Part shown: positions 3,901 through 31,821 of the stretch, piece by piece
Layout of the letters: every line of letters begins with the position of its first letter
Numbering within the stretch: position 1 is the stretch's first letter
NCBI GenBank assembly: GCA_964422845.1
Contig: CAYRCT010000001.1
Coordinates: 1 to 47,738, forward strand
Source of the DNA: an uncultured Candidatus Saccharibacteria bacterium
GTDB taxonomy: Bacteria; Patescibacteriota; Minisyncoccia; Minisyncoccales; PEYH01
Direction of reading: 5' to 3'
DNA length: 47,738 nt
Translations under genes and position numbers: made by a program
The notes under the pieces: generated by a model
Database searches by the model: none
Seen by the model: the letters and a program-made list of their open reading frames with translations, nothing else
What the model was told of the DNA's origin: nothing

Positions 3901-4153
3901 TAATAAGGTAAAAATTTACGGATTAATTTCAAAGATTAAAAAAGTTATCACTAAAAGCGGACGGCCAATGTTTTTCGTAATTATTGAAGATCTTAGCGGC
4001 AGAATTGAAATAATTGTCTTCCCTAATACTGCCGAGCAATGTTCCCTTTCTCTGGTCGAAAATAAAATTGTCTTAATTTCTGGTCGAGCAGACATTAAGG
4101 AAGAGACCCCCAAAATTATTGCCGAAAGCATTGAAGAAATAATAGAGGAATAA
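914..4153 (+). CDS. dnaE: DNA polymerase III alpha subunit
   Basis: 1079 aa. It has the N-terminal PHP motif HLHVHSQYSLLDG, the GPGRGSAGGSLVAYLAGIT palm motif, FNKSHS, and a C-terminal OB-fold-like region. Confidence 0.95.
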   Translation: MVPKFTHLHVHSQYSLLDGLPKIEELLNYVKENGMDSVALTDHGVLYGAVEFYKKAKAAGIKPIIGCEVYVAFEKMNQKRPNIDNKSYHLVLLAKNEIGYKNLVKLVTKAQLEGFYYKPRIDEELLFKHSEGLIALSACLKGKIPQLVLSGKIEEAEKLALKYQTVFGKDSFYLEIQHHPNIPKQAKVNEALISISKKCNIPLVATNDCHYLKPEDAEAQDILMLINTGAKSDDQNRLTMRQDDFSMITPEKMLENFKHVPEALENTQKIVELCNFEFKLGKTTLPYFELSNGKTPQEHLKSVCQKVLEEKKKEFKDIEIAKQRMKYELEVIQKTGFASYFLIVADFVNWAKKNKIVVGPGRGSAGGSLVAYLAGITNIEPIKHNLLFERFLNPERISMPDIDLDFADIGREKVIKYISQKYGENNVAQIITFGTMAARAVIRDVGRVLQYPYLVCDKIAKMIPFGFNLSQALKQIPEFREMYESDEKITRLIDLAKKLEGVARHASTHACGLVISDKALDELVPLQHPTQSEVGIVSQYEMHSIEDLGLLKVDLLGLKNLTIIENCINLIEKIRNEKIDIDKIPENDKKTYKLLQKAETISVFQLESEGMRKWLSKLQPSKFEDIVAMLALYRPGPMQFIPEYIARKRKRKKVEYVHPRLKTILEPTYGILVYQEQLMQIAQQIAGFSLSEADILRKAVGKKIKSLLDTQKEKFISGAVKQGIEKNVAEKIWGWFLPFAQYGFNKSHSTGYGIIAYQTAYLKANYPVEYMASVFASEKQDIERTALLIEECKRMGIKVLPPDINESFKNFTVVGKNQIRFGLLAIKNVGHNITVAIMEERKANGKFQSMADFINRILCKDLNKRSMQSLIKVGAFDELEERGILLKNLERLLSCSREIQNHKKNGQKGLFDSSTTIPTMTLSNAEPVSPAEKLQWEKELLGLFISGHPLESFKKSLGKKTIPISKIRQDLLKKDEHPGLPIPQISGPFFKKIMPGNKVKIYGLISKIKKVITKSGRPMFFVIIEDLSGRIEIIVFPNTAEQCSLSLVENKIVLISGRADIKEETPKIIAESIEEIIEE

Positions 4154-4249
4154 TGAGCTGTATGAGTTACAAACTCGGACAGCTTAAAATTTTAAGCATT
4201 CTTTCGCAACTATTGAATTGTTGGGGAATTAAGCTAAAATGAAAAAATT

Positions 4250-5971
4250 ATGGAATTAGAAACTTTAAGACATTCGTTAGCCCATATATTAGCTTATGCG
4301 GTTCAGGAAATGTATCCTGGAACCAAATTTGGAATTGGACCATCTATTGAAAATGGTTTTTATTATGATTTTGACTTGCCCTCCCCTATCTCTGAAAAGG
4401 ATTTGTGTAAAATAGAAAAAAGAATGCGTCAGTTTATTAGACAAGATTTACGTTTCCAAAAAAAAATTATTACTAAAGTTGAAGCAAAAAAAGTTTTTAA
4501 AAATGAGCCGTATAAATTAGAACTTATAAACGAGCTCTCAAAACAGGCCTCAAAAATCAATACTTATCAAGTAGGAAATTTTCTTGACCTTTGCAAAGGA
4601 CCTCATTTAAAATCTACAAGGGAAATTCCTTTAGATAGTTTCAAATTAACTAAGGTTGCCGGAGCTTACTGGAAAGGAAATGAAAAGAATAAAATGCTCA
4701 CAAGAATTTACGGAGTCGCATTTCTTTCTAAAAAAGAATTAAAAAATCACTTACAAAAACTAGAAGAAGCGGAAAAAAGAGATCATCGTATATTGGGAAA
4801 AAAGCTGGAACTTTTTATTCTCGACGAAGAGATAGGTGCTGGACTGCCCCTGTGGTCTCCCAAGGGGGCAACGTTGCGTCATATTGTTGAAAGCTATCTT
4901 TATGATGAGCTCAATCAAGCTGGCTATAATTGGGTTGTCTCTCCACATATCGCTAATCTTGAACTTTGGAAAACATCTGGACATTGGAACTTTTATAAAG
5001 AGAATATGTATTCCCCCATTGATATTGACGAAGATCAATATATGCTTAAGCCGATGAATTGTCCTTTCCATATAAAAATATACAATTCCAAAATTCGGAG
5101 CTACAAGGATTTGCCAATACTTTTTGCCGAATTAGGGACTGTTTACAGATATGAAAAATCAGGTGTTTTACATGGATTAACTAGAGTTCGCGGATTTACT
5201 CAAGACGATGCCCACATTTTCTGTACTCCAGAACAATTATCAGAAGAGCTTCTTAAAACGACAAGATTAGGCATTAAAATGCTAAAAAAATTCGGATTCA
5301 AAGATTTTCAAATATTTCTTTCCACGCGACCAGAAAAATATGTAGGCAGTGAACAAAATTGGGAAAAAGCAACTCACGCTTTAAAATATACACTTTCTTC
5401 TTTAAAGCTAGATTATGAAATAGATAAAGGCGGAGGCGTTTTTTATGGTCCTAAGATTGATATAAAAATCAAAGACAGTTTAGGAAGACAATGGCAATGC
5501 ACCACTATTCAAGTTGATTTTAATCTTCCTGAACGTTTTTATATGTCTTATATAGACAAACATGGAAAAAAGAAAGAACCAATAATGATTCATCGTGCAT
5601 TACTAGGATCGGTTGAAAGATTTATCGGCGTGTTGATAGAACATTACGGAGGAGCTTTTCCTTTATGGCTCTCGCCTGTTCAAATTTGGGTTATCCCCAT
5701 AGGCAAGGGACACCGAAAATATGCTAAACAAATCGCTGATAAACTTAAATCAGAAAATTTCAGAGTTGAATTAAAAAATGAGGATGAAACCGTTTCAAAG
5801 AAAATAAGAAACGCTGGGATTCAGCGAATTCCATATATTTTGGTACTCGGAGATAAAGAAATTAAAGCCAAAAAGATCGGATTAAGAACAAGAGAAAAAG
5901 GAGATGTAGGATTGACAACTCTTTCTGCTTTTATCAAAAAAATTAAACAGGAAATTGAAAAAAAGAGATGA
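4250..5971 (+). CDS. thrS: Threonyl-tRNA synthetase lacking the N-terminal TGS domain
   Basis: Class II motifs are present (FRYEKSGVLHGLTRVRGFTQDDAHIF, HRALLGSVERFIGVLIEHY). The ORF starts directly at the editing-domain motif RHSLAHILAYAV. A C-terminal anticodon-binding domain is present. Confidence 0.92.
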   Translation: MELETLRHSLAHILAYAVQEMYPGTKFGIGPSIENGFYYDFDLPSPISEKDLCKIEKRMRQFIRQDLRFQKKIITKVEAKKVFKNEPYKLELINELSKQASKINTYQVGNFLDLCKGPHLKSTREIPLDSFKLTKVAGAYWKGNEKNKMLTRIYGVAFLSKKELKNHLQKLEEAEKRDHRILGKKLELFILDEEIGAGLPLWSPKGATLRHIVESYLYDELNQAGYNWVVSPHIANLELWKTSGHWNFYKENMYSPIDIDEDQYMLKPMNCPFHIKIYNSKIRSYKDLPILFAELGTVYRYEKSGVLHGLTRVRGFTQDDAHIFCTPEQLSEELLKTTRLGIKMLKKFGFKDFQIFLSTRPEKYVGSEQNWEKATHALKYTLSSLKLDYEIDKGGGVFYGPKIDIKIKDSLGRQWQCTTIQVDFNLPERFYMSYIDKHGKKKEPIMIHRALLGSVERFIGVLIEHYGGAFPLWLSPVQIWVIPIGKGHRKYAKQIADKLKSENFRVELKNEDETVSKKIRNAGIQRIPYILVLGDKEIKAKKIGLRTREKGDVGLTTLSAFIKKIKQEIEKKR

Positions 5972-6411
5972 ACATTGCGAATGAGACCATTTCTTTAGAG
6001 ACCAAAGAGAGCTTTGATATTATTGACATAACTGAAAGAATAAAAAGATTTGTCCAAGAATCAAAAATAGAAAATGGATTAATAAATATTCAAACCTTGC
6101 ATACCACGGCAAAAATTTTTGTTAACGAAAATGAACCAGAGCTTTTAAAAGATATTAAAAATCATTTAGAAAAATTAGCCCCTAAAAACGATAAGTATCA
6201 TCACGATAATTTTGATATTAGAACTGTAAATATGTGCAACGATGAATGCGCTAATGGACATGCCCACTGTAAAGCGATTCATCTGCCGACAAGCGTTTCT
6301 TTAAATCTAGTTTCCAACAAAATCAAATTAGGAACATGGCAAAGAATTATGTTTATAGAACTAGATCGTCCTAGAAAAAGACAAATCCATGTGCAAATTA
6401 TAGGAGAATAA
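5968..6411 (+). CDS. yjbQ: YjbQ/UPF0047 family protein (secondary thiamine-phosphate synthase-like)
   Basis: 147 aa, with the HTTA..FVNENEP...D....L..L.P.....YHH pattern typical of the family. It overlaps the thrS stop codon (ATGA). Confidence 0.7.
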   Translation: MNIANETISLETKESFDIIDITERIKRFVQESKIENGLINIQTLHTTAKIFVNENEPELLKDIKNHLEKLAPKNDKYHHDNFDIRTVNMCNDECANGHAHCKAIHLPTSVSLNLVSNKIKLGTWQRIMFIELDRPRKRQIHVQIIGE

Positions 6412-6427
6412 TTGATTATTGGCCGAT

Positions 6428-6455
6428 AAAAAGCGCTTTACCGAAGCGCTTTTTT
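6428..6455 (+). terminator. Rho-independent terminator after yjbQ
   Basis: AAAGCGCTT-TACCG-AAGCGCTTT forms a 9-bp stem followed by a T-run. Confidence 0.7.
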
Positions 6456-6473
6456 GATTTAAGCTAAAACAAT

Positions 6474-7772
6474 ATGAAATATTCTATAATCACATTCGGT
6501 TGTCAGATGAATATTAGCGATAGCGAAAGGATCGCCAAAGTTTTAGAAGATATTGGATTTACAGAATCTGCTTCTTTTGAGAACGCAAATTTAATCATCA
6601 TTAACGCATGCTCAGTAAGACAATCAGCGATCGACAGGGTATATGGTAAAATCAGAAAATTATCTTTCGAGACCTCCAGATCTATAGATGCGGATGGCAG
6701 GCCTAAGATCCTTTTAACAGGATGTATTTTAAAAAAAGATAAAATAAAATTTAGGAAAGATTGTAATGGAATTTTTGGAATAGATGAACTGCCAAAATTG
6801 CCAAATTTATTAAAAAAACTTGGATTTAAGATTAAAGAAAATAATAAAAAAGTTGAACACTATCTTCAGATAAGTCCTGAATACCAATCAAATATTTCTG
6901 CCTGCGTGCCAATAATGACTGGGTGTAATAATTTTTGCGCCTATTGTGTTGTTCCCTATGTCCGCGGTAGAGAAATTTCTCGACCAGAAGAAGATATTTT
7001 ATGCGAGATTAAAGCTTTAGGTAAGCGTGGAATAAAAGAAATTTGGCTTTTAGGCCAGAATGTAAATTCTTATAAACCAAATTTTGCTAAATTATTACAA
7101 AAAGTTAATAACATTCCCGGTAATTTTTGGATTAGATTTACCTCTACTCATCCAAAAGATTTGACCGACGAAATGATTGAAACATTTGCTCAATCTGAAA
7201 AAGTAACCCCCTATTTTAACTTACCGATTCAATCAGGCGATGATGAAATGCTTAAAGCAATGAATAGACCATATACAGTAAAAAAATATGAAACATTAAT
7301 TAAAAAATCAAGAAATGCTTTTAAAAAATACCGCGAAGGCATAGAAGAAGAGCTCTCTCTTTCTACAGATATAATAGTCGGTTTCCCTGGGGAAACTAAA
7401 AAACATTTTGAGAATACTGTAAAAACTTTCAAAAAAATCAATGTTGCTTTTGCCTATATTTCTCTTTACTCTCCCCGCCCTCAAACTACGGCATTTGAAT
7501 TAAAAGACGATATTTCTCATGCTGAAAAAAAACAAAGAGAGAAAAAATTATTAGAAATTATTGAAAAAAGCTCTCTTGAATTCAATAAAAAATTTATCAA
7601 CAAAATAGTTGATGTTCTAATCTTAAAAAAGAAAAAAGATTTTTATCTCGGTAAAACCCGACATTATCAAACCATCCGATTTGCGAGTAACAGTGGATGC
7701 AAGGTTGGCGAATTTATAAAAGCAAAAGTAACAAAAGCAACGCCATATGGCTTGGAAGGAAAAATACAATAA
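6474..7772 (+). CDS. miaB: tRNA methylthiotransferase (MiaB-type radical SAM enzyme)
   Basis: It has an N-terminal UPF0004 domain (ITFGCQMN), the radical-SAM motif CNNFCAYCVVPYVRG and a C-terminal TRAM-like region. It is adjacent to miaA. Confidence 0.85.
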   Translation: MKYSIITFGCQMNISDSERIAKVLEDIGFTESASFENANLIIINACSVRQSAIDRVYGKIRKLSFETSRSIDADGRPKILLTGCILKKDKIKFRKDCNGIFGIDELPKLPNLLKKLGFKIKENNKKVEHYLQISPEYQSNISACVPIMTGCNNFCAYCVVPYVRGREISRPEEDILCEIKALGKRGIKEIWLLGQNVNSYKPNFAKLLQKVNNIPGNFWIRFTSTHPKDLTDEMIETFAQSEKVTPYFNLPIQSGDDEMLKAMNRPYTVKKYETLIKKSRNAFKKYREGIEEELSLSTDIIVGFPGETKKHFENTVKTFKKINVAFAYISLYSPRPQTTAFELKDDISHAEKKQREKKLLEIIEKSSLEFNKKFINKIVDVLILKKKKDFYLGKTRHYQTIRFASNSGCKVGEFIKAKVTKATPYGLEGKIQ

Positions 7773-8649
7773 AAAACTAATAGTGATTCTAGGACCCAAT
7801 GCGTCTGGAAAAAGCGCCTTAGCAGTAAATCTTGCCAAAGAATTTAATGGCGAAGTAATTTCAGCTGATTCAAGACAAGTCTATAAAGGAATGGATATTG
7901 GTACAGGTAAAATCACTAGAAAAGAAATGCAAGGCATTTCTCATCACCTTTTAGATGTTGCATCGCCCAAAAGGCGATTTACTGTTACCCAATATCAGAA
8001 AAAAGCAAATAATGCCATAAAAAAGATTTATAAAAAAAGAAAGATTCCTATTCTTTGCGGAGGCACTGGCTTTTATATCCAATCCGTGGTTGACGGAATA
8101 ATTATTCCTAAGGTAAAACCAGACTGGAAATTTAGAAATTTACTTGAAAAAAAGCCGACTGAACAATTATTTCAAATGCTCCAATATCTTGATTCAAAAA
8201 GAGCAGAAAATATTGACAAATATAACAGAAGAAGATTAATCCGCGCGATTGAGATTGTTGTCAAAACGAAAAAAAGCATTCCTGTTCTTAAAAAACAGAA
8301 AAAATTTGATGTTCTAATACTTGGAGTCAAAAGAGATAAATTGGAATTAGAAAAAAGAATCAAGGAACGCTTAGAAAAACAACTCAAGCAAGGGATGGTT
8401 AAAGAAGTAAAAAGATTGAAGAAATCGGGACTTTCTTGGAAACGAATTGAAGAATTTGGCTTAGAATATAAATTTATTGCCTATCAACTTCAAAATAAAA
8501 TGGAATACAATGAGATGGTTGAACGACTACAAAAAGCTATTGAAAATTATGCTAAAAGACAAATGACTTGGTTTAAGAGAGATAAAAGAATTTATTGGTT
8601 AAAAGACAAAAAAACAGCCAAAATGCTGATTAAAAAATTTTATAAATAG
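7747..8649 (+). CDS. miaA: tRNA dimethylallyltransferase
   Basis: It has the P-loop GPNASGKS and the motif SADSRQVYKGMDIGTGK. It overlaps the miaB 3' end by 26 nt. Confidence 0.9.
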   Translation: MAWKEKYNKKLIVILGPNASGKSALAVNLAKEFNGEVISADSRQVYKGMDIGTGKITRKEMQGISHHLLDVASPKRRFTVTQYQKKANNAIKKIYKKRKIPILCGGTGFYIQSVVDGIIIPKVKPDWKFRNLLEKKPTEQLFQMLQYLDSKRAENIDKYNRRRLIRAIEIVVKTKKSIPVLKKQKKFDVLILGVKRDKLELEKRIKERLEKQLKQGMVKEVKRLKKSGLSWKRIEEFGLEYKFIAYQLQNKMEYNEMVERLQKAIENYAKRQMTWFKRDKRIYWLKDKKTAKMLIKKFYK

Positions 8650-8706
8650 TTAAAACAATATATAGAGGTAGGGCTAATAAGCAAGCTTACCAGCCCCCCT
8701 CAAAGA

Positions 8707-8916
8707 TTAGCCCTGTATCATTCGGGCCGTATCAGCTATCGTTAGAGACCCTCCCCGGTTCTCTCTTTCTCTTTGCGCCAAAATATCGGCGACTTCCTCC
8801 TCGGAGACAGGGTTAGACATAAACCCTTCTTTTGTTGGATTTTCTTCTATGAATACCATCCAAGATTTTCTGCCCCGACTACCCCTGGGACTTCTACTGT
8901 CATTTACGTTCGGCAT
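8707..8916 (-). CDS. Hypothetical 69-aa protein in a GC-richer cassette
   Basis: The ORF is preceded by AAGGGGGAATTGA-ATG. One 60-nt hand count (8701-8760) gives about 52% GC. I recognised no family. Confidence 0.45.
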   Translation of the reverse strand: MPNVNDSRSPRGSRGRKSWMVFIEENPTKEGFMSNPVSEEEVADILAQRERENRGGSLTIADTARMIQG

Positions 8917-8977
8917 TCAATTCCCCCTTTTTTGAGATTCTTGGTCGTTAGACCGACAGCTCCATTAAAGCGCTAAA

Positions 8978-9481
8978 TCATATCAAGGTAACCACCTCCA
9001 TTTTTTCTTCTTCAGCAACGACAACATAGCCAAGTTCATTCTTAGAAATTGTTACCTTGCGAAAACCATCAAGCCGAAACTGCTTGGCGATAGCTTTAAT
9101 GATATCTTCTCTGTCGTCAATGAAGAGCGTGCATCCAATCGTGGATATCACTCTAGCCTTAAAAAGTGGCTGGGAAACGCGCGGATCCTTTCGTAGATAA
9201 ATACCATCAAAAGGAATCTTCCATAATTTAAACCAGCACCGAACAAGCCATCCAATGATGCCATATATCCCCGAAACAACGAAAACCTTATTGCCTGCTT
9301 CTCTCTGCTCTCTGATCCACTCTACCGCTTTAGATTTCGGATGCCTGAAAATATAACATGGGGTAGCAAGAAGCACCCTGACAACTCTATTTCGGATTGG
9401 TTTTCCAGAAAAGGGCCAATACCATATCTTCCAAGGGTTTTCGGCTATCACGCCATCAACATCTATTCCAACAATAGCCAT
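8978..9481 (-). CDS. HAD-superfamily hydrolase-like protein
   Basis: HAD motif I is DVDGVI, motif II-like is VVSG, and motif IV-like is FIDDRED. I moved the start to the ATG at 9481 because AAGGAGG lies 8 nt upstream; the GTG at 9490 in the track lies inside that SD. Confidence 0.6.
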   Translation of the reverse strand: MAIVGIDVDGVIAENPWKIWYWPFSGKPIRNRVVRVLLATPCYIFRHPKSKAVEWIREQREAGNKVFVVSGIYGIIGWLVRCWFKLWKIPFDGIYLRKDPRVSQPLFKARVISTIGCTLFIDDREDIIKAIAKQFRLDGFRKVTISKNELGYVVVAEEEKMEVVTLI

Positions 9482-9562
9482 CTTGCTCACCTCCTTCTTT
9501 CTCTATTCACTTGAAAAAGATCAAAACAAAAAAACTACAACTTTAGTATGTTTTATAATACC

Positions 9563-11023
9563 TTATTTTAACTCTTTTGTAAAGAGTCTTTCTAATATTT
9601 CTGGGTTCGCCTTGCCCTTGCTTTGAGCCATTGCTTGACCTATCAAAAATTGAAGCGCATTTCCCTTTCCTTCTTTCAGATCTTTAACTGCTTTTAAATT
9701 TTGAGAAATAACCTCTCTAACAATCCCCTCTAACTCTCCTTTATCTTCTATCTTGCTCAATCCCTTTTCTTTAATAATGTCTGATGGGTCAGCTCCTTTC
9801 TCAAACATTTCTTTGAGAACAATTTTGCTAATTTTGCTCGTCATTTCTTTTCTATATAACAAAGAGATAAACTCGGCAAAGTTCTCTGGAGTGATAAGAA
9901 ATCTTTTGTCCTCAACCGACATTCCTCTTAATAATCCCAAAAGTTCAGAAAGGATATAGTTTGAAGCAATTTGAGCTAATTTCTTATATTCCTTTTCTTC
10001 AATATCTTTATTGTCTTTTGATTTGAGCCATTCTTGAAATTCAGAAACTACTTGTTCAAAATATTCTCCCAAGTCCTTGTTTGAAATAAAGATCCCTATA
10101 TCTGATTCTTTCAATCCATATTCTTGTTTAAAACGAATTTGTTTATTTTGAGGTAATTCTGGGATTTCTGCTTGAATATCTTGAATATATTTTTTTTCAA
10201 AACTTAAGGCAGGTAAATCTGGTTCAGGAAAATATCTATAATCATGAGCTTGTTCTTTAATCCTCTGGGAAACGGTTATTTGTTTTTTCTCATCCCAGCC
10301 CCTTGTTTCTTGAATTATCTTCTCTCCCCCATTTAAAACTTCGGCCTGTCTCTTAATCTCATATTCTATTGCCTTTTTGACTATTTTAAAAGAATTTAAA
10401 TTTTTAATCTCCACCTTAGTTCCCAGTTCTTTACTTGCGCTTATTGAAATATTTGCCTCAACTCTCATCTCTCCTTTTTCCATATTAGCATCAGACACGC
10501 CTAAATAACGAAATATAAGCTGAAGCTGTTGAGCAAAATCATGCGCCTCTCCCCCACTACTTAAATCCGGTTCGGTTACTAATTCCATTAAAGGAACTCC
10601 GGCTCGATTAAAATCAAGCAATGAACAGTCATTCTTATGAATTAATCTTGCTGTATCTTCTTCTAAATGAATTCTCTCAATCATTATTTTCTTGTTTTTG
10701 ACCTGCAAAAAACCATGCCTACATAATGGTAAAGCATATTGGGAAATCTGATAACCTTTTGGCAAATCCGGATAAAAATAATTCTTCCGTTCAAATCCTG
10801 ATTTCAAAGAGATTTTACAGCCCAGAGCTAGACCAGTTTTTATAACTTTTTTGACTGCCTCTTTGTTAATAACGGGAAGTGTTCCTGGATGAGCCATGCA
10901 AATGGGACAAATATTAATATTTGCTTCTTTTTCTAAAGGATCATTCTTGCAACCACAAAACATCTTAGATTTTGTTTTTAATTCAGCGTGCACCTCCAGT
11001 CCAATTGTAGGCTTATATTCCAT
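9563..11023 (-). CDS. gatB: Asp/Glu-tRNA amidotransferase subunit B
   Basis: 486 aa. It has the N-terminal IGLEVHAELKTKSKMFC motif and a C-terminal GatB/YqeY domain. Confidence 0.93.
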   Translation of the reverse strand: MEYKPTIGLEVHAELKTKSKMFCGCKNDPLEKEANINICPICMAHPGTLPVINKEAVKKVIKTGLALGCKISLKSGFERKNYFYPDLPKGYQISQYALPLCRHGFLQVKNKKIMIERIHLEEDTARLIHKNDCSLLDFNRAGVPLMELVTEPDLSSGGEAHDFAQQLQLIFRYLGVSDANMEKGEMRVEANISISASKELGTKVEIKNLNSFKIVKKAIEYEIKRQAEVLNGGEKIIQETRGWDEKKQITVSQRIKEQAHDYRYFPEPDLPALSFEKKYIQDIQAEIPELPQNKQIRFKQEYGLKESDIGIFISNKDLGEYFEQVVSEFQEWLKSKDNKDIEEKEYKKLAQIASNYILSELLGLLRGMSVEDKRFLITPENFAEFISLLYRKEMTSKISKIVLKEMFEKGADPSDIIKEKGLSKIEDKGELEGIVREVISQNLKAVKDLKEGKGNALQFLIGQAMAQSKGKANPEILERLFTKELK

Positions 11024-11108: not shown

Positions 11109-12338
11109 ATGCATATTCAGAAAATAAGCCCTGAAATAAAAAACCTTATTAATTTAGAGCTTAAAAAAGAAAAAGAATCTATCAATCTTATTCCTTCGGA
11201 AAACTATGCTTCTCCATCTGTATTAGAAGCCGCTGGTTCTGTTTTAACAAATAAGTATTCGGAGGGAATGGTTGGTAAGCGATATTATCCGGGTAATCAG
11301 ATTATAGATATAGTAGAAGAGCTATGCCAAAAAAGGATAAAACAACTTTTTAATTTAAACGATTATTGGAGTGTTAATGTGCAAAGCTTATCTGGCACAG
11401 TAGCCAACTTGTCAGTTTATCTAGGACTTTTAAAACCAGAAGATAAAATTCTCTCTATGGAATTATCTGCTGGCGGCCATTTAAGCCACGGACACAAGGT
11501 AAATGCTAGCTCTATGTTTTATAAAATTATTCATTACGCTCTATCAGAAGAAACAAATGAGCTTGATTATAAAAAAATTAAAAAAATTGCTCAGCAAGAA
11601 AGGCCCAATCTTATTGTTTGTGGAGCGACTGCTTATCCGAGAAAAATAAATTTTCAAAAATTTGCAGATATAGCCCATTCTGTAGACGCCTATCTTATGG
11701 CAGACATTTCTCATATTGCTGGTCTCGTCGCGACAGGGCTTCACCCCTCGCCGTTTCCTTATGCAGATGTAGTCACTTCAACCACTCACAAAACTTTAAG
11801 GGGTCCGCGCTCGGCATTTATTATCTCTAATAAACGAATTAGTAAAAAAATAAACAGGGCTGTTTTTCCGGGAATGCAAGGCGGACCTCATAATCATATA
11901 ATTCTAGCTAAATTAATAGCTATTGAGGAAGCGCTACAACCATCGTTCAAGGAATATCAAAAACAAATAATAAAAAATGCCAAGGCTTTGGCAGATTCTT
12001 TAAATAAGCTTGGTTTTAAATTAGTTACCGGAGGAACTGATACTCATTTGCTGTTAATCAATCTAACTAATCAAATAAGTGGAATAAAGGCTCAAGATTT
12101 GTTGGAAGAGGTATCTATATTAGCTAATCGAAATACGATACCAGGAGATAAAGATTATTTTTATCCTTCAGGGTTAAGAATGGGAACACCCGCTATCACA
12201 ACTAGAGGCATGAAAGAAGAACAAATGGAAATAATCGCCCAATTAATTTATGATACACTTCAGCAAAAACAACCATTAGATAAAATAGAAGCAGGAGTAA
12301 AAAAACTTTGTCAAGAATTTCCTATTTACGAAAATTAA
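11109..12338 (+). CDS. glyA: Serine hydroxymethyltransferase
   Basis: It has the PLP-lysine motif TSTTHKTLRGPR and the YSEGMVGKRYY motif. Confidence 0.95.
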   Translation: MHIQKISPEIKNLINLELKKEKESINLIPSENYASPSVLEAAGSVLTNKYSEGMVGKRYYPGNQIIDIVEELCQKRIKQLFNLNDYWSVNVQSLSGTVANLSVYLGLLKPEDKILSMELSAGGHLSHGHKVNASSMFYKIIHYALSEETNELDYKKIKKIAQQERPNLIVCGATAYPRKINFQKFADIAHSVDAYLMADISHIAGLVATGLHPSPFPYADVVTSTTHKTLRGPRSAFIISNKRISKKINRAVFPGMQGGPHNHIILAKLIAIEEALQPSFKEYQKQIIKNAKALADSLNKLGFKLVTGGTDTHLLLINLTNQISGIKAQDLLEEVSILANRNTIPGDKDYFYPSGLRMGTPAITTRGMKEEQMEIIAQLIYDTLQQKQPLDKIEAGVKKLCQEFPIYEN

Positions 12339-12765
12339 ACTTCTCATAAGCATTCTCTAATAAATAGACGTCCTTAACATCTGCTTTTATCATTTTACTC
12401 CAGCAATCTCTACAACACCACCAATGACCGTATAAATAAAGATCCGCCCCCTTTGTGTCCTCTTGGGCATTTTTAATTGCCTGAGCTTCAGCGTGCCCCT
12501 CCTGTAAGCAAATTTCTTTACATAAATAATAATCCTCGCCTGTTTTACTCCCCTTCTCTACCCGAGGACATTTGTCAACTCTCTTGCCAGCATTGGTCCC
12601 TCTTCCTATAATTCTATTATTTTTAACCAACACTGCTCCTGTTGCTTGTAGCACGCAACCACTTTTGCTAGAGATCTCTTTAGCAGCCAACATATAAGAA
12701 TTATCTTCTTTAACAAACTTAAACTTTCTGTTCTCAGGTAAATATGGATAAATAATTTCTACCAT
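12322..12765 (-). CDS. dCMP deaminase (ComEB-type cytidine/deoxycytidylate deaminase)
   Basis: It has the zinc motifs GHAEAQAI and C-C-R-D-C, plus the cysteine-containing insertion before HAE that is typical of dCMP deaminases. It is the last gene of an overlapping operon. Confidence 0.8.
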   Translation of the reverse strand: MVEIIYPYLPENRKFKFVKEDNSYMLAAKEISSKSGCVLQATGAVLVKNNRIIGRGTNAGKRVDKCPRVEKGSKTGEDYYLCKEICLQEGHAEAQAIKNAQEDTKGADLYLYGHWWCCRDCWSKMIKADVKDVYLLENAYEKFNFRK

Positions 12766-13418
12766 TAAACTTTAAAATTATCTTTTAATTCATCTATTTT
12801 ACCTTCTCTGATAAACTCTACCTCTTCTCGGTCATCATTTTTAGCGATTAAAGAATATGGTGCAGATTCCTGATATTTCGCATTCTTTAAGCCATGTTTT
12901 TGAGCTTCTTCTTCTGTGAGAGGAGAAGATAGTAAATGAAAAACCAACTGACAAACTCTCTCGCCCGGATAAAGTCTAATAGTTTGAGTATGAGTATTGT
13001 TTATAATAGGAAGAGCCATATATCCTTTGTAATGGCTGTCTATTGTTCCGCTAAAAATCAAAAGCCCCCTTCTAATAAGCGAACTGCGAGCATATAACAT
13101 GGCCATCAAACTATCATCTTCAATACTCATTTTCTCTAAAGTGGAAGCGATAACAAATTCTTTCGGCAATAATTCAAAATATTGCCCGGGTTGGAGCTTG
13201 ATAAGATCCATACTATTCTTTGATGCATACTCTGTGTAATCAACATTCAATCCTGTCCTACCCTGATCGTTAATTGTCCAATTTTTTGGACTATAAAAGC
13301 TCCATCCTAACCTTAGGTCAACACCGTTTGGCTGCAACTGAAATTTGTCTATATTCGGCTCAAATTTTAATCCCTCTTCTTTTATCTTATTTAAGATATC
13401 CTTTTTTGATAAAACCAT
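12765..13418 (-). CDS. dCTP deaminase/dUTPase-superfamily protein with atypical active-site residues
   Basis: The N-terminal region (NGVDLRLG) and ARSSLIRRGL resemble Dcd. Motif III, GTIDSHYKGYMALPIIN, is closer to Dut (see findings). Confidence 0.7.
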   Translation of the reverse strand: MVLSKKDILNKIKEEGLKFEPNIDKFQLQPNGVDLRLGWSFYSPKNWTINDQGRTGLNVDYTEYASKNSMDLIKLQPGQYFELLPKEFVIASTLEKMSIEDDSLMAMLYARSSLIRRGLLIFSGTIDSHYKGYMALPIINNTHTQTIRLYPGERVCQLVFHLLSSPLTEEEAQKHGLKNAKYQESAPYSLIAKNDDREEVEFIREGKIDELKDNFKV

Positions 13419-13433
13419 ATTTATTATAATTAA

Positions 13434-13934
13434 TTATTTTATTACTTTATACCTCAAAAGAATTGTATCATTATTCAACTTTTTTGTTTCAATTAACTTA
13501 AGATTTACCTCAAACTCATCTTTAAAAAGAGAAATTCCTTGTCCAAAAATTATTGGCTCCACGGTCAAAAATATTTCATCTATTAATCCTGATATTAAAA
13601 ATTGAGTATTCAAATGGGACCCACCTCCCAATACTGCTGACTTATATCCTTGTTGCTCTAGTTTCTTAATAATGTCTTTTGGTTTGCCCGATACATATAA
13701 AACATTATCATAAATCTCCATGTCCTTACTTCTCGTAAAAACAACATTTAATCGGTCTTTTAAGGGTTTCTTAAATGTCCTGAATGTATTGTCCCCGATT
13801 AAGACAACTTTATGTTTCAATGAAAGCTCAACAAAAAAGGCCCTATCCTCCTTAGATGTCCAATCAGGAAAATGGTTCTTGTGTTTACCGATCTTACCAT
13901 CGGCCGTAATAGCCATTACTAAAATAATCTTCAT
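13434..13934 (-). CDS. Dihydrofolate reductase-like protein (RibD C-terminal domain family)
   Basis: It has MKIILVMAITADGKIG, VLIGDNTF and LGGGSHLN motifs. Its start overlaps the stop of the thyA-like gene (ATGA). Confidence 0.65.
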   Translation of the reverse strand: MKIILVMAITADGKIGKHKNHFPDWTSKEDRAFFVELSLKHKVVLIGDNTFRTFKKPLKDRLNVVFTRSKDMEIYDNVLYVSGKPKDIIKKLEQQGYKSAVLGGGSHLNTQFLISGLIDEIFLTVEPIIFGQGISLFKDEFEVNLKLIETKKLNNDTILLRYKVIK

Positions 13935-14761
13935 AAAACAATCTTTAATCCTTTAATTGAAGGCATTGGATTATACTGTCTTTCTAACTCGTCAATAATT
14001 CTTTGGGTTAAAAATTCATCCCCTTTCTCTGCTTTCTCAAACCAATCTTTTTGTCCTTCGAGCATAATGGGACAATGGTCATTTTCTCTTTCCATGAGCT
14101 CCCAAGCTGCCTGATAATGAATATCGTATATGTGTGCATTGCTTATAGAAACGGTAAGCTTGCCTACTCTTACGCCGAGTTTAGCTGCTAAAATCCTTTG
14201 CAAGAGTGCAAATCCAGCTACATCGTGCGGACAACCCAAGATTAAATCATTAGATCTTATAATAAGATGCAAATGGAGTTTATTCGCTATAATATTAACT
14301 GTAAAAGTATACGGACAGGGTACGTTCTTTTTCTTTTCCTCTAGCCCCCTTATATCGTCACCAGGATCCCACGCAACAACAACACCATGTCTGGAACTTG
14401 GATCTTTTGTCAATAAATCAATTAAGGCTTTAATCTGATCCTTACCAAAATATTTGCGCCACCGATATCCATAAGCAGTAGGAACCTTTCCATCCTCTTC
14501 TGAAAAATCATGCCAGATTTTAGTAAATTTTCTTAAAAAAATATCTGGATCCCTTTCTCCCATCAAAAACCATATTTGTTCAGCAACAAATAATTTTATA
14601 GGAATCTTGCGCAGGGTCAAAAGTGGAAATCCTTCATCTAAATTAAAAACTACGCCTGCTAAGGCCTTAGTATAACAATTCTGTCTTTTACTATAAACTT
14701 CCTCCCCCTTATTCATTACTTCCCAAAGAACCTGTTTATACTGCTTATCAAACTGAGTCAT
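13931..14761 (-). CDS. Thymidylate synthase (ThyA) family protein with Asp at the Asn177-equivalent position
   Basis: The TS core motifs align without gaps: EQIWFLMG, YGYRWR, DPSSRH, catalytic VPCPYTF, IRSNDLILGCPHDVAGFALL and NAHIY. Confidence 0.85.
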   Translation of the reverse strand: MTQFDKQYKQVLWEVMNKGEEVYSKRQNCYTKALAGVVFNLDEGFPLLTLRKIPIKLFVAEQIWFLMGERDPDIFLRKFTKIWHDFSEEDGKVPTAYGYRWRKYFGKDQIKALIDLLTKDPSSRHGVVVAWDPGDDIRGLEEKKKNVPCPYTFTVNIIANKLHLHLIIRSNDLILGCPHDVAGFALLQRILAAKLGVRVGKLTVSISNAHIYDIHYQAAWELMERENDHCPIMLEGQKDWFEKAEKGDEFLTQRIIDELERQYNPMPSIKGLKIVL

Positions 14762-21674: not shown

Positions 21675-22382
21675 CTATAACATTTTTTTAACCTCTTCCC
21701 AAATCTTTTTATGAATAATTTCTGGTGACAATAATTCTCCATCTTTAATACATTTTATCGCTTTATAGTCTTCGGGAAATTCTTCTAAGACCTGAGCGTA
21801 AGAATTAAGAGCGTCTTTTAGATGATCAATATCTTGTTCGTGTAAATCTCTTTTCTTTTTTCCAAGATAAAGCTCTTTTCTCTTTTTCTTCAGCCGATCC
21901 GTTATCTTACCTGACAATTTATAAGCTAATTGTGGAGAAGTTTCTAGAACAAAAGCAATGTCGGGAACAGGTATTCCGAAAAAATTATATTCAAGATTAT
22001 AAAGCCATTTAAAAAATTCACTTCTTTTATTTTTGTCTTTTATCTTCCCTCCTTGGTGACCCATATTAGAAGCCACATATCTATCTGAAACTACAATTAC
22101 GCCTTTATTCAATAATTTTTTTATCTTAAATGAAGCATCATATCGGTCACAAGCATAAAAAATAGAAGCTCGCTTAGCCCCTACTTCTTTGGCAGAGCCA
22201 TATTTCCCTGCCAAATATTCTTCAACAAGACCTGCTGATTTTTTGCCGTATTGAGGAAAATCTATTTTAACCGCTTTAAAGCCCGATTTCTTTAATGCTT
22301 TAAATAGAAGTTTTGTTTGAGTGGATTTTCCCGATCCGTCTAATCCTTCAAAAATAATAAATTTTCCTCTTTCGTTTTTCAT
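21675..22382 (-). CDS. tmk: Thymidylate kinase (long form, 235 aa)
   Basis: It has the P-loop FEGLDGSGKSTQ and the DRY motif (SDRYVASN). Confidence 0.88.
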   Translation of the reverse strand: MKNERGKFIIFEGLDGSGKSTQTKLLFKALKKSGFKAVKIDFPQYGKKSAGLVEEYLAGKYGSAKEVGAKRASIFYACDRYDASFKIKKLLNKGVIVVSDRYVASNMGHQGGKIKDKNKRSEFFKWLYNLEYNFFGIPVPDIAFVLETSPQLAYKLSGKITDRLKKKRKELYLGKKKRDLHEQDIDHLKDALNSYAQVLEEFPEDYKAIKCIKDGELLSPEIIHKKIWEEVKKML

Positions 22383-23223: not shown

Positions 23224-23832
23224 TTATTCCTTTATCTCAGAAAAAGCTTTTTGATAAATTGCAATAAGCTCTTTGGCCCTTTCTAAAGAAAGTTGAGCCT
23301 TGGGATAAGCTAACATTTTCTGTAAAATTTCTTTCGCTTTCAAAATATCGTCAGCATTAGAAATTGTTTCCCCTGATAGTTTTTTCTCTTGTTTTTTTAA
23401 TGCTTGATTAAAAAGTTTGTCTGCATCGATAAACGCTAACTTATAATTCAATTCATTTCCGCTTTCTAATTTATCTGAAATTCTTTCCCAATCAGTTCTT
23501 TCTATTCTGCCATCTTTAAAATTTAATTCTTCATCTTTAGATTCATCTGACTCTCTAGAAATAGACGGCTTCATAGCTGGATCAGACGAATTAATGGCAG
23601 AGGCAGAAGAAAGATATGCTTTTTTAACTGCCTTAGAACTATAATGATTTTTCCAATACCGATAGTCTTCTAATCTATCCAGAAATACATATTTTAAATA
23701 GGAAGTTATAAAAAGAAAGTAAACAATTAAGATAAGAGATGTCAAAGAAAAAATAAAAACAATGAGCTTCACTGGAAAAAGAGCTTGTTGAAGTTCCGGA
23801 GAAATAATCATTTGGAAAATATTATCTAGCAT
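23224..23832 (-). CDS. Hypothetical membrane-anchored protein (202 aa)
   Basis: It has an N-terminal TM helix (LIVFIFSLTSLILIVYFLFI). It overlaps the gatA stop by 7 nt. I recognised no family. Confidence 0.55.
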   Translation of the reverse strand: MLDNIFQMIISPELQQALFPVKLIVFIFSLTSLILIVYFLFITSYLKYVFLDRLEDYRYWKNHYSSKAVKKAYLSSASAINSSDPAMKPSISRESDESKDEELNFKDGRIERTDWERISDKLESGNELNYKLAFIDADKLFNQALKKQEKKLSGETISNADDILKAKEILQKMLAYPKAQLSLERAKELIAIYQKAFSEIKE

Positions 23833-25587: not shown

Positions 25588-26664
25588 TTATTGTCGTGGC
25601 GGCTCAAATTCCTCTTGTTCGCTTAAAACATCCTCTAATTCGTCCAGATTTTCTAGAACCATGCCCGCTCCCCTAACAACGGCTGTAAGGGGATCTTCAA
25701 TAACTTTAACAGGCATTTTTGTTTCTTTGGCAATAAGCTCATTTAATCCCCTTAACATTGAACCCCCTCCAGCCAAAAATATGCCCCTAGCCATAATGTC
25801 AGCAACTAATTCTGGTGGCGTTGATTCAATAATGTCTTTAACAGTGTTAACTATTTGTTTAACTGATTTCTCAAGAGCTAATTTAATATTGCCTTCTCCA
25901 ACCATTACTTCTTCGGGCAAACCAGTAATTAAATTTCTTCCTCTAATTGGTATTTCTTTTTTCTCCTTGCCCTTAACTTTGTTAATGCTCTTGCCCAAAT
26001 AAGCGGAACCAATCTTTATCTTCACTTGCTCGGCAGTACGGGTTCCAATTAATAATCGATATTCTTCTTGGCAATAGTCTATAATATCTCTGTCAAGCCG
26101 ATCTCCTGCTATTTTTAAACTTTTCGCTAGAACAATACCTCCAAGAGAAATAACAGCAATATCAGCAGTTCCTCCGCCAATATCCACTAAAAAATTGCCA
26201 CCCGCTTCTTGAATCGGCAGACGAGCACCAATGGCCGCAGCTATCGGCTGTTCAATTAAAAATACTTTTCTGGCTCCAGCATTTTTAGCTGCATCGCGAA
26301 CTGCTTTCTTTTCTACTTCGGTTAATCCGCAAGGAATTCCAACGATTACTCGGGGTCTTGGAAAAACTACCCGATTTTTATAAGTACTCTCAATAAAATA
26401 TTTAAGCATTTGCTCTGCAATCTCAAAATCAGAAATTACTCCCTTTATTAACGGCCTACTAGCAGTGATGTGAGTCGGTGTCCTGCCAACCATCTTTTTT
26501 GCTTCTTTGCCGATAGCTAGAACTTGACCAGTTTTTTGGTTAACAGCTACTACCGATGGTTCAGCAATAACAATTCCCTCCCCTTTTACATAAACTAAAG
26601 TAGTGGCAGTTCCTAAGTCAATAGCAATGTCTTTTCTTAAATTAGAAAAAAAGTTATGTATCAT
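25588..26664 (-). CDS. mreB: Rod-shape-determining actin homologue MreB (copy 1)
   Basis: It has the actin-fold phosphate motifs IDLGTATT and DIGGGTADIAV, plus LAGGGSMLRGL. Confidence 0.92.
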   Translation of the reverse strand: MIHNFFSNLRKDIAIDLGTATTLVYVKGEGIVIAEPSVVAVNQKTGQVLAIGKEAKKMVGRTPTHITASRPLIKGVISDFEIAEQMLKYFIESTYKNRVVFPRPRVIVGIPCGLTEVEKKAVRDAAKNAGARKVFLIEQPIAAAIGARLPIQEAGGNFLVDIGGGTADIAVISLGGIVLAKSLKIAGDRLDRDIIDYCQEEYRLLIGTRTAEQVKIKIGSAYLGKSINKVKGKEKKEIPIRGRNLITGLPEEVMVGEGNIKLALEKSVKQIVNTVKDIIESTPPELVADIMARGIFLAGGGSMLRGLNELIAKETKMPVKVIEDPLTAVVRGAGMVLENLDELEDVLSEQEEFEPPRQ

Positions 26665-29728: not shown

Positions 29729-30778
29729 TTATTTTAAAATATAAGCAGTCGCGGGACCTTTACCTTTTTGTTCAATAATTTTTAATTTTTTAAGCTTCTG
29801 CAATTCCAATTGAGCAGTTCTCTTTGAACAATCTAAAATATCAACCGCATCTTTTATTATAATCTTGCCACTTATATTAATAAAATCAAGAATTTGGACT
29901 TGCCGAAGGCTTAAATAAATTTGCTCTCCTGATGTCTTGTTATTTTTAAGGGCTGCAAGTGAAAATATTTTTGTTCTTACGGTCTCAATTTCAAATTTAA
30001 ATCCTTCGATAAAATATTCTAACCATTTTGTGAAATCTTTTTGATGGTAAATCGGCCCTATGCTAATTGCCTGATAATATTTTTGTCTATCTTTATTGTA
30101 ATAATCTTCTAGGGCAAAAAGTTTACGAAAATTATAATCTCTTTGATACAAAATCAAGGTAGATAAGGCCCGGGCCACCCTTCCATTCCCATCAACAAAT
30201 GGATGAATAGAAGCAAACTGACGATGAGCCGTTCCTGCAACTAAAATTGGATGAATATCTTGTTGTTTGCTGTTCTGGATCCAATCAATTAGATCCTTTA
30301 TTAACTCAGAAACTTTCAAGGCATCAGGTGCTGTATAAATAACTTTATCGGGCGCGCCTAGTGCTCTTTTAACAACATAGACCTTTTGAGTTCGATACTT
30401 GCCACACTTTTCTTTTGGTAATGTTTTATCTGTAACTAGATGGTGAATTTTCAAAATAATTGACTCTGTGATTACTTTCTTTTCCTCAACTATTTTTTCA
30501 ATGTACTTAATTGTTTTTAAATAATTCTTTGCTTCATAAATATATCTTGCTGGCGCATCAATTTTTTGCCCCTTGAATAATGCCTCAACTTGTTCAAGAT
30601 TCAAAATGTTTCCTTCTATCGCGATAGAGCTTTGAGTCATTCTAATTAATGCTTGCCTGCGCAATCTAAGTTCTTGAGTAGGCAAAATCTTTGCTTTTTC
30701 AATAATAACTTTAGCTTCAGCTATAGAGGTTAAATCAGATAATATCTTATTGGTCAGCTTGTAAGATGGATTAAACAT
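29729..30778 (-). CDS. Fic-domain protein with a C-terminal wHTH-like region
   Basis: The Fic motif HPFVDGNGRVAR is intact. An N-terminal inhibitory-helix-like motif SIAIEG is present. The start was moved to M27 (MFNPSYKL) of the track ORF, which is the more typical family N-terminus. Confidence 0.8.
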   Translation of the reverse strand: MFNPSYKLTNKILSDLTSIAEAKVIIEKAKILPTQELRLRRQALIRMTQSSIAIEGNILNLEQVEALFKGQKIDAPARYIYEAKNYLKTIKYIEKIVEEKKVITESIILKIHHLVTDKTLPKEKCGKYRTQKVYVVKRALGAPDKVIYTAPDALKVSELIKDLIDWIQNSKQQDIHPILVAGTAHRQFASIHPFVDGNGRVARALSTLILYQRDYNFRKLFALEDYYNKDRQKYYQAISIGPIYHQKDFTKWLEYFIEGFKFEIETVRTKIFSLAALKNNKTSGEQIYLSLRQVQILDFINISGKIIIKDAVDILDCSKRTAQLELQKLKKLKIIEQKGKGPATAYILK

Positions 30779-30891
30779 AGTTTTGATACTATCCCTTTCT
30801 ATGCATTTTAACACTAAATTTAGAATCGCGCAATAATCACGCAATAAATCGTGCAAAAAACAGATTATTTATCTAAGTTTTAAGTCTTAGA

Positions 30892-31821
30892 TTAAATTTT
30901 CATCAATAGAACTTCTAGTGCTAATCGGGGATTAGCATTGGTGCGAAAAAGAACAAATTTTATCTTTTCAATCAGATTAATAATCTTTTTCAAATGCTGA
31001 ATTGAATAATTATTTTTTTGAAAATCTGCCGGCACTTGCCTATTCCCAAATTTATTTAATAAAAGCTCTCGAAAATAATTTAACCAAATATCTAAAACTT
31101 TATTCGTTTCCTCTCTTTTTTTAGAAAGTTTTTCAGCATATTGGAAACGAATTTTTAAAGATGAATCAACGAGCTGGTTAATTCCTTTTATTTTTTCTCT
31201 CTGAAATTTTTCTTGTTTAGGATTATTCAAACAATCTATTGCCAATCCGGGTTTACCGAAAGATAACCACGAAAGTTCTTGCGCCTTTCTGACAGAAATA
31301 TTCTGCTGAATTAAATATTTTTCTATCTTTTTATTAGATAATAAATCAAAACGAATTACTTGGCATCTAGAAACGATCGTGGAAGTAAGCCGATTCAATT
31401 GTTGGGATAATAAAATGATTACTGTCTTACCTTTGGGCTCTTCCAATAATTTCAACAAAGCTCCTTGAGCATCAGCAGTCATTTCTGACGCCTCATCAAT
31501 AATAGCCGCCTTATAGTTTTGACCAATAGCTGATAAAGATAATTTCGTTTTTAAGTCAAAAATTTGAGCCACAGGAATAATTGCTCTAGATGATTCTTTT
31601 TTTTCACCCTCTTTGTCAACTGAACATTCTGGCTTAATCAATGTTAAGTCAGAAACAATGTTACTTTCTTGTGAAGGGTTAACTAATAATTTTGTGAACT
31701 CCAAGGCAATTGCTTTTTTCCCAATCTTGCCTGGACCGTAGAATAAATAGGCATGGGCAACTCTATTATTCTGAATACTTCTTTTTAAAAAATTTCTTTG
31801 TTTTTCATGCCCAATAATCAT
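30892..31821 (-). CDS. holB: DNA polymerase III delta' subunit
   Basis: It has the AAA+ clamp-loader motifs HAYLFYGPGKIGK and SRCQVIRF. Confidence 0.85.
   Translation of the reverse strand: MIIGHEKQRNFLKRSIQNNRVAHAYLFYGPGKIGKKAIALEFTKLLVNPSQESNIVSDLTLIKPECSVDKEGEKKESSRAIIPVAQIFDLKTKLSLSAIGQNYKAAIIDEASEMTADAQGALLKLLEEPKGKTVIILLSQQLNRLTSTIVSRCQVIRFDLLSNKKIEKYLIQQNISVRKAQELSWLSFGKPGLAIDCLNNPKQEKFQREKIKGINQLVDSSLKIRFQYAEKLSKKREETNKVLDIWLNYFRELLLNKFGNRQVPADFQKNNYSIQHLKKIINLIEKIKFVLFRTNANPRLALEVLLMKI

Follow-up and report, generated by a model that had tools for sequence, protein, structure and literature searches.

An aspartate-type thymidylate synthase homologue in a Patescibacteria housekeeping operon and a predicted cytosine-first route to dTMP

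Textbook synthesis of thymidine monophosphate (dTMP) is the methylation of deoxyuridine monophosphate (dUMP) by ThyA or ThyX. The 47,738-nucleotide contig CAYRCT010000001.1 (hereafter the window, meaning the whole stretch of DNA that was analyzed), which is of Patescibacteria (Candidate Phyla Radiation, CPR) chromosome type, raises the question of whether a ThyA homologue can instead act on deoxycytidine monophosphate (dCMP) in a housekeeping role. The gene in question lies between rplK and gatB, in an operon of four closely packed minus-strand genes that immediately follows rplK, and its product has aspartate where E. coli ThyA has Asn177. The remaining three genes encode a dihydrofolate reductase (DHFR), a protein of the Dcd family, and a zinc deaminase of the dCMP deaminase family (Table 1). 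Considering all of the evidence below, we think it probable, though by no means assured, that the operon is a housekeeping alternative for making dTMP, in which dCTP would be converted to dCMP, dCMP to 5-methyl-dCMP, and 5-methyl-dCMP to dTMP, with the cytosine of the DNA being ordinary.

The ThyA homologue is a complete ATG-to-stop open reading frame (ORF) that matches PF00303 with an E value of 3.5e-50. Its segment IIRSNDLILGCPHDVAGFALL was aligned by phmmer, without gaps, to the conserved block of solved thymidylate synthases (TS), and MAFFT alignments with E. coli ThyA reproduced that register; the E. coli reference sequence was verified residue by residue against PDB 1AOB. Asp180 (codon GAT, 14222-14224) corresponds to E. 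coli Asn177 and His179 to Phe176, both as had been predicted, and the PF00303 alignment agreed. With three independent alignments in concordance, an error of register was ruled out. The residues previously listed as catalytic are all retained: Cys149 (14315-14317; E. coli Cys146), Glu61 (Glu58), Tyr97 (Tyr94), Arg169, Ser170, and Asp172 (Arg166, Ser167, and Asp169), and His210 and Tyr212 (His207 and Tyr209). Further substitutions are Pro150 (14312-14314) for His147, His125 for Arg127, and Ile168 for Gln165. The Asn177/His147/Arg127 set of canonical ThyA is therefore absent from the window protein, which has Asp180, Pro150, and His125 instead. The motif of T4 dCMP hydroxymethylase (gp42) that had been quoted for comparison, MRSNDVVFGFRNDYAW, proved to be exact when gp42 was verified against PDB 1B49.

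Beyond these positions, the protein resembles canonical ThyA (E. coli, L. casei) in its fold, its catalytic residues, its C-terminal tail, and its partnership with DHFR and serine hydroxymethyltransferase (SHMT). The AF2 structural model had a pLDDT (predicted local distance difference test) of 89.6, and a Foldseek search against PDB yielded only the full-length TS fold, the best matches being full-length thymidylate synthases at a TM score of ~0.8. The C-terminal tail, ...YNPMPSIKGLKIVL, is TS-like and aligns to YDPHPGIKAPVAI. The differences from canonical ThyA, to which identity is ~25-30%, are the natural Asp177/Pro147/His127 combination (E. coli numbering), the loss of five residues following the Tyr94 region, and an insertion that precedes the catalytic Cys. 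The ribose determinants are of the deoxy type (Ser170 and Arg124). In MilA-type CMP enzymes, Ala replaces Ser167 and Lys replaces Arg126', a rule that distinguishes ribose from deoxyribose substrates (PMC5175136). The CMP hydroxymethylases MilA and BcmA also have Asp at the discriminating position, but MilA uses Ala176 and Lys133' for ribose where the window protein has Ser170 and Arg124, and it carries a large helical C-terminal domain. A MilA-type ribonucleotide (CMP) substrate was thus ruled out by Ser170 and Arg124.

Asp180 and Pro150 are invariant in 121/121 of the closest database relatives and in 80/80 metagenome loci (201 together). Because of this invariance, the Asp180 signature is neither due to chance nor a sequencing error, and a pseudogene was ruled out on the same grounds. 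Falkow-, Uhr-, Kuenen-, Moran-, and Portnoybacteria are among the names of the closest relatives, and every relative that could be attributed belongs to the Patescibacteria. The nearest public record is a Patescibacteria metagenome-assembled genome (JAYENY010000009), the thyA homologue of which is 92% identical; a contig search using the window ThyA homologue alone gave only three relevant loci plus the thyA of Bacillus. The protein passes the TIGR03284 cut-off (128.7 vs 108.35), and public records name it thymidylate synthase; seven other NCBIfam models matched it with scores far under their cut-offs (e.g., NF002497, 150 vs 327). We found no literature recognizing the Asp signature in Patescibacteria; published work takes their thyA to encode a standard thymidylate synthase.

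According to a metavirome association study (PMC8670742), no two positions discriminate better than 177 and 147 between TS homologues that modify cytosine and those that use uracil. In a set of 150 sequences representing 50%-identity TS clusters, 26 of the 27 Asn177 proteins paired this residue with His147 and Arg127; Asp177 was paired with a residue other than His at 147 (mostly Pro) except in two cases, and position 127 was then mostly Gln or His. A neighbor-joining (NJ) tree of 144 sequences, which is a distance tree without bootstrap, divided an Asn clade containing E. coli ThyA from a large Asp clade, with T4 gp42 as a distant outgroup. When the phylogenetic check advised in the original prediction was made in this way, the ThyA homologue and its Patescibacteria family fell in the Asp clade, apart from the Asn clade and together with the TS homologues of phages that contain 5-methylcytosine (5mC), namely Pseudomonas phage PaMx74 and Xanthomonas phage Mallos. 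A side observation concerns the recent "thymidylate synthase" structures 9IQU, 9IQC, and 9IR2 (234-238 amino acids) in the PDB, which score about as high against T4 gp42 as canonical TS do and are maybe another non-canonical TS homologue.

The closest matches among cultured phages are the PaMx74/XP12-like group; identity is 31-36%, and the alignments span 95-97% of the length. Like the window protein, the TS homologues of the 5mC phages (the XP12 group, e.g., Mallos, and PaMx74) have Asp at 177 and Pro at 147, and they have in common with it the motifs NVPCP, AAYGYRWR..FG(R/K)DQ, and AWDP; the PaMx74/XP12-like proteins also share indels with it relative to E. coli ThyA. The likeness extends to the neighboring genes, as 5mC phages have NTP pyrophosphohydrolase, dCMP-family deaminase, and DHFR partners (PaMx74 and Mallos carry the gene set hydrolase (pyrophosphohydrolase)-TS-deaminase-DHFR), and to the flow from 5-methyl-dC nucleotides to dT nucleotides that has been proposed for them. 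Unlike the phage genes, the window gene resides in a cellular chromosome and has been conserved by vertical descent in several Patescibacteria lineages. Its predicted pyrophosphatase partner is a Dcd-fold protein without the catalytic Glu, not MazG or HAD; its deaminase, with 23% identity to PaMx74 cd, belongs to another subfamily; and its C-terminal tail is longer and nearer to that of TS.

The stop codon of the thyA homologue and the start codon of the DHFR gene overlap by 4 nucleotides (ATGA, read directly from the sequence), and the DHFR is presumably translationally coupled to the thyA homologue through this overlap. The window DHFR matches Thermotoga maritima DHFR (PDB 1CZ3/1D1G) with an E value of 8.6e-30 over residues 2-165, i.e., its full length. 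Dihydrofolate is produced only by reductive, TS-type methylation; the overlapping DHFR gene therefore argues, if only indirectly, for a methylase and not a hydroxymethylase. The same argument had been made in advance of this analysis, and it held: the DHFR is a genuine T. maritima-type enzyme, and the TS-like tail is kept. Together with the residue signature, this points to the Asp-type ThyA homologue being a reductive dCMP methylase.

Gene linkage was assessed in 34 metagenome loci having at least 3 kb on each side of an Asp-type thyA, with partners counted within 3.5 kb. The Dcd-like gene was found in all 34 loci and is the most tightly linked partner. The deaminase, which had been singled out earlier as a co-operonic partner and is indeed a conserved neighbor, was found in 31, DHFR in 29, and all three partners together in 27. 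Within ±8 kb of the Asp-type thyA, Tmk was found in 20/34 loci, an uncharacterized P-loop kinase (AAA_17/18) in 16/34, and thymidine kinase (TK) in 4/34. Natural fusions of the Asp-type TS also occur. A deaminase::Asp-TS fusion with the deaminase at the N terminus (P0145, at 8001-9302 of L102) lies on a phage-like contig with a Glu-less Dcd-like gene adjacent; P0206 fuses a MazG-like (PRA-PH) pyrophosphohydrolase to an Asp-TS; and in P0153 an Asp-type TS is fused to an HNH_3 endonuclease domain.

The identities earlier assigned to the dCMP deaminase and DHFR stood, but the Dcd-like fourth gene, with its lost catalytic Glu, had been overlooked. In alignments to Dcd structures, Pro137 (13008-13010) occupies the position of Glu138 in E. 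coli Dcd and Glu129 in that of M. tuberculosis. Across the 120 closest Dcd-like relatives, the residue at this position is Pro in 116, Ser in 4, and Glu in none, and it is Pro in 6/6 operon orthologues and 58/58 metagenome loci. The protein shares with Dcd and the bifunctional Dcd-Dut enzymes their fold, their family, an RSS..R motif, and an AKY C-terminal motif, and its TIGR02274 score exceeds the cut-off of 92.8; it is annotated as a dCTP deaminase, a label that is probably widely misapplied to proteins of this kind. It differs from Dcd in having Pro for the catalytic Glu138 and in occurring beside a separate canonical Dut. It resembles dUTPase in retaining the Asp and Tyr of motif III (Asp127 and Tyr130, matching dUTPase Asp90 and Tyr93). 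The possibility that it is the dUTPase of the cell was ruled out because a separate canonical Dut adjoins the Dcd-like gene in 9 of the 34 loci. Judging from these residues, the protein probably removes only pyrophosphate; its predicted reaction is dCTP to dCMP and pyrophosphate.

The stop codon of the Dcd-like gene and the start codon of the deaminase gene also overlap (TAATG, read directly). The deaminase contains the zinc motifs HAE (residues 91-93) and CxxC and belongs to a distinct "GHWWCC" subfamily, with the motif GHWWCCRDCW. Its best PDB matches are the S. mutans dCMP deaminase 2HVV (E 2.7e-8) and the PBCV-1 enzyme 4P9C. Members of the same subfamily, at 30-33% identity, are found beside Asp-type TS genes on two phage-like contigs (L020 and L021). 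The 5mC-selective phage deaminases (mSCD-B5 and its kin) likewise have the dCMP_cyt_deam_1 fold and lie next to an Asp-type TS. A search for published sequence features that would predict 5mC selectivity in deaminases found none. We infer that the operon deaminase would convert a 5-methyl-dC nucleotide to a dT nucleotide. Two variants of the operon-type deaminase are worth recording separately: at L045 (9523-10608) it is fused to an HAD phosphatase, and in at least five loci (L026, 3949-4827; also L029, L032, L064, and L070) it carries a C-terminal domain of ~140 amino acids with a weak match to nucleoside 2-deoxyribosyltransferase (Rcl/DNPH1-like fold), which might serve to clear unwanted deoxynucleoside monophosphates.

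A useful comparison is provided by a 309-amino acid ThyA family with Asn177, His147, and Arg127, which is common in other Patescibacteria (Lipton-, Paceibacterota, and Saccharibacteria) and in DPANN archaea. Asn-type Patescibacteria loci share the chromosomal neighborhood of the window (GyrB-SecE-NusG-L11-L1 ... Tmk ... GatB), and the gene order of L107 is that of the window. Three Asn-type loci (L105, L107, and L108) have a Glu-containing Dcd (3/3) and a canonical Dut, in L104 the partner is a canonical PCxxC dCMP deaminase, and an ordinary FolA is present in each of these four control loci. The residue at ThyA position 177 therefore changes in step with the Dcd catalytic residue and with the kind of deaminase, as would be expected if deamination moved from before to after methylation. 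As different gene types occupy the same chromosomal site, the Asp-type and Asn-type modules look like alternatives. The lengths of the longest contigs in the top-120 Asn-type and Asp-type clusters, compared by eye, showed no agreement that would point to a contig common to both, which is weak evidence. Within the window, no thyX, second thyA, or dut was found, and no ThyX was found in 863 kb of locus flanks (±8-10 kb) using a probe, T. maritima ThyX, that had been checked against PDB.

Both modules were found together on one 10-kb Patescibacteria contig (L067; Ga0265316_10007526, 3983-10100). The order there is Asp-type ThyA, Glu-less Dcd-like protein, deaminase, P-loop kinase, and canonical Dut, followed by a second kinase (weakly matching PF21448, a family of T4-type dNMP kinases), Tmk, an Asn-type thyA interrupted by a single TAA (9104-9106), and a canonical folA. 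An intact homologue, 96% identical, exists for the interrupted thyA. The contig may have caught one system in the course of displacing the other, or it may contain an assembly error. As an observation apart from the operon, the 309-amino acid Asn-type ThyA is 70-75% identical between Patescibacteria and DPANN (Woesearchaeota and Nanoarchaeia; P0411-P0530), and L106 is clearly archaeal (eRF1, histone, TrmB), which suggests gene exchange between these two ultra-small groups.

In the cytosine-first route, the usual three chemical steps would be carried out in a different order by four co-transcribed genes. The Glu-less Dcd-like protein would first remove pyrophosphate from dCTP to yield dCMP. Cys149 of the ThyA homologue would then attack C6 of dCMP, while Asp180 hydrogen-bonds N4 and protonates N3; transfer of the methylene group from 5,10-methylene-tetrahydrofolate (methylene-THF), and then of hydride, would give 5-methyl-dCMP and dihydrofolate, a reaction predicted from the residue signature and from relatives that have been tested. 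DHFR and the neighboring SHMT would recycle the folate, with SHMT regenerating 5,10-methylene-THF. The dCMP-family deaminase is predicted to convert the 5-methyl-dC nucleotide to the dT nucleotide, at either the monophosphate or the triphosphate level, and thymidylate kinase (Tmk) would carry the product onward from dTMP to dTDP. The identities of DHFR, SHMT, and Tmk are established by homology. The scheme assumes that ordinary cytosine stays in the DNA.

A route of this kind has a precedent in phages, where it was put forward both for those with 5mC, XP12 among them, and for TS/deaminase pairs, some of which were tested (bioRxiv 10.1101/2024.12.05.627091). According to that study, 70% of the dCMP-deaminase genes on modified-cytosine phage contigs have a TS homologue no more than 3 kb away, and 85% of those TS homologues are predicted from active-site residues to make 5-hydroxymethyldeoxycytidine (5hmdC) or 5-methyldeoxycytidine (5mdC) nucleotides; 5mdCMP was made in vivo by five of seven deaminase-adjacent Asp-type TSs, many of the partner deaminases are 5mC-selective, and in XP12, labeled cytosine gives rise to both 5mC and T (bioRxiv 10.1101/2024.12.05.627091). 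The chemistry and the idea are thus known from phages; what appears to be new here is the cellular, vertically conserved housekeeping setting and a new pyrophosphatase partner. This also determines how far the original prediction of dCMP methylation and a cytosine-first route can be upheld: all of the computational tests able to tell against it came out in its favor, but dUMP may still be the substrate, and the idea was not new.

Several observations weigh against the cytosine-first route. In the phages, just five of the seven tested Asp-type TSs gave 5mdCMP, and the best-studied partner deaminase, mSCD-B5, uses 5mdCTP and not 5mdCMP (bioRxiv 10.1101/2024.12.05.627091). The window deaminase is, as noted, only distantly related to PaMx74 cd (just 23% identity), and an Asp-type module coexists with an interrupted Asn-type thyA on contig L067. 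A canonical Dut, a source of dUMP, is present in 9 of the 34 clusters, and a Patescibacteria Dcd-like::deaminase fusion (L034, 9988-11193) is easier to reconcile with the dCMP-to-dUMP order, in which the two fused steps would follow one another directly. The last two observations are what would be expected if the operon followed the ordinary TS order (dCTP to dCMP to dUMP to dTMP) and the Asp-type enzyme methylated dUMP; all four enzymes also fit that order, provided that dUMP is accepted. DHFR, SHMT, deaminase, Tmk, and a nearby TK are, moreover, the content of a classical dTMP operon, and the ThyA homologue both passes the TIGR03284 cut-off and bears the public name thymidylate synthase. We nevertheless judge the ordinary order to be unlikely. 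It leaves the loss of the Dcd Glu and the distinct deaminase subfamily without explanation; throughout the clade, Asp, Pro147, and His/Gln127 either never vary or vary together, whereas the Asn177/His147/Arg127 set persists in Patescibacteria that follow the classical route. That exchanging this Asn for Asp switches specificity is, moreover, a classical result: such mutants of the L. casei and E. coli enzymes (N229D and N177D) are dCMP methylases, said to lose most of their dUMP activity and to prefer dCMP (Liu and Santi in 1992, Hardy and Nalivaika in 1992, both cited in PMC8670742), which disfavors dUMP as the substrate here.

A different outcome of dCMP methylation would be that, as in XP12 and PaMx74, chromosomal cytosine is mostly or wholly replaced by 5mC through the nucleotide pool in Falkow-, Uhr-, Kuenen-, Moran-, Portnoybacteria, and others. 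The Dcd-like protein would then be a dCTPase that excludes dCTP, the cluster kinases would phosphorylate 5-methyl-dCMP, and the deaminase would tap the pool for dTTP. The gene set does match that of the 5mC phages, the Dcd-like protein is a constant member of the module, P-loop kinases (AAA_17/18) occur in 16/34 clusters (one of those in L067 with a weak match to PF21448), and the phage partner deaminases act on 5mdCTP. The window operon itself, however, has no kinase, and a cell, unlike a phage, would need all of its DNA-binding proteins to be compatible with 5mC. Tight coupling to a deaminase fits full conversion to dT equally as well as partial diversion, and a literature search gave no report of 5mC-substituted Patescibacteria DNA, although such a search cannot prove absence. 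Wholesale substitution is therefore improbable in our estimation. Still further from the evidence is a dCMP hydroxymethylase like T4 gp42, supplying 5-hydroxymethyl-dCMP for modified DNA or a nucleoside product. T4 gp42 has in common with the window protein the discriminating Asp, the catalytic Cys and Glu, RSND, and a substrate of the deoxyribonucleotide kind, but it is very distant in sequence and a distant outgroup in the NJ tree. Hydroxymethylases release THF and require no DHFR, and gp42 lacks the TS C-terminal tail (PMC5175136). An open folate site is a further mark of the T4-type enzyme. The start codon of the window DHFR gene overlaps the thyA stop, the TS-like tail is present, and no glucosyl- or carbamoyl-transferase is nearby in the window; because of the DHFR and the tail in particular, hydroxymethylation is very improbable.

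If the cytosine-first route is correct, a large part of the CPR methylates dCMP and then deaminates the product in order to obtain thymidine, which would bring to three the housekeeping solutions for an indispensable step in making DNA. Metabolic reconstructions would have to change, as dUMP would no longer be the dTMP precursor, and inhibitors of the FdUMP type would be inapplicable, which bears on drug and antimetabolite logic. It would also be a clear example of a phage and a cell sharing a nucleotide-pool pathway. Were the genomes instead 5mC-substituted, that would be a major finding, the first case of wholesale base substitution in the DNA of cellular organisms. Whatever the pathway, two genes of the operon pass curated thresholds, yet each encodes a protein without an activity-defining residue, and database entries misnamed for this reason probably number from hundreds to thousands.

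Table 1. Genes of the operon and related nucleotide and folate genes in the window
Feature	Length (aa)	Position	Strand	Profile matches
ThyA homologue, Asp type, predicted dCMP C5-methyltransferase	276	13931..14761	-	PF00303 171 bits
Dihydrofolate reductase, Thermotoga maritima type	166	13434..13934	-	PF01872 77 bits, PF00186 54 bits
Dcd-family protein without catalytic Glu	217	12765..13418	-	PF22769 93.8 bits, TIGR02274 107.1
dCMP-deaminase-family zinc deaminase	147	12322..12765	-	PF00383 44 bits
Serine hydroxymethyltransferase (GlyA)		11109..12338	+	PF00464 511 bits
Thymidylate kinase (Tmk), step after dTMP		21675..22382	-	PF02223 83 bits

No terminator-like sites were found on the minus strand between the four operon genes, and glyA is convergent with the operon, overlapping its end. 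Tmk lies 7 kb upstream of the operon in the window; in many relatives, it is inside the cluster (e.g., L001, L003, and L067). The window has a G+C content of ~34%, and its gene content is housekeeping only: DnaE, ThrRS, MiaB, MiaA, GatB, GlyA, L11, NusG, SecE, and GyrB, together with PheST, Tmk, GatA, two MreB proteins, RRF, MurA, RpoA, and AlaRS. A prophage or mobile island was ruled out, the whole window being housekeeping and its synteny conserved.

Some minor features of the window bear on none of the above. The two full-length MreB paralogues are less than 7 kb apart (25588-26664 and 31818-32828, minus strand), and a Fic/DOC-domain protein is encoded amid the housekeeping genes (29729-30856, minus strand). 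Four ORFs had no Pfam match at E <= 1e-4: 34741-36219 (plus strand, 492 amino acids), 41537-42844 (minus, 435), 23224-23832 (minus, 202), and 8978-9490 (minus, 170). Finally, the GC skew changes sign at about 8650-8980, from ~+0.07 before 8 kb to between -0.11 and -0.27 thereafter, and gene orientation converges at the same place, with plus-strand genes up to 8649 and nearly all genes on the minus strand from 8978; the coincidence of skew switch and convergence is the pattern expected of a replication terminus.

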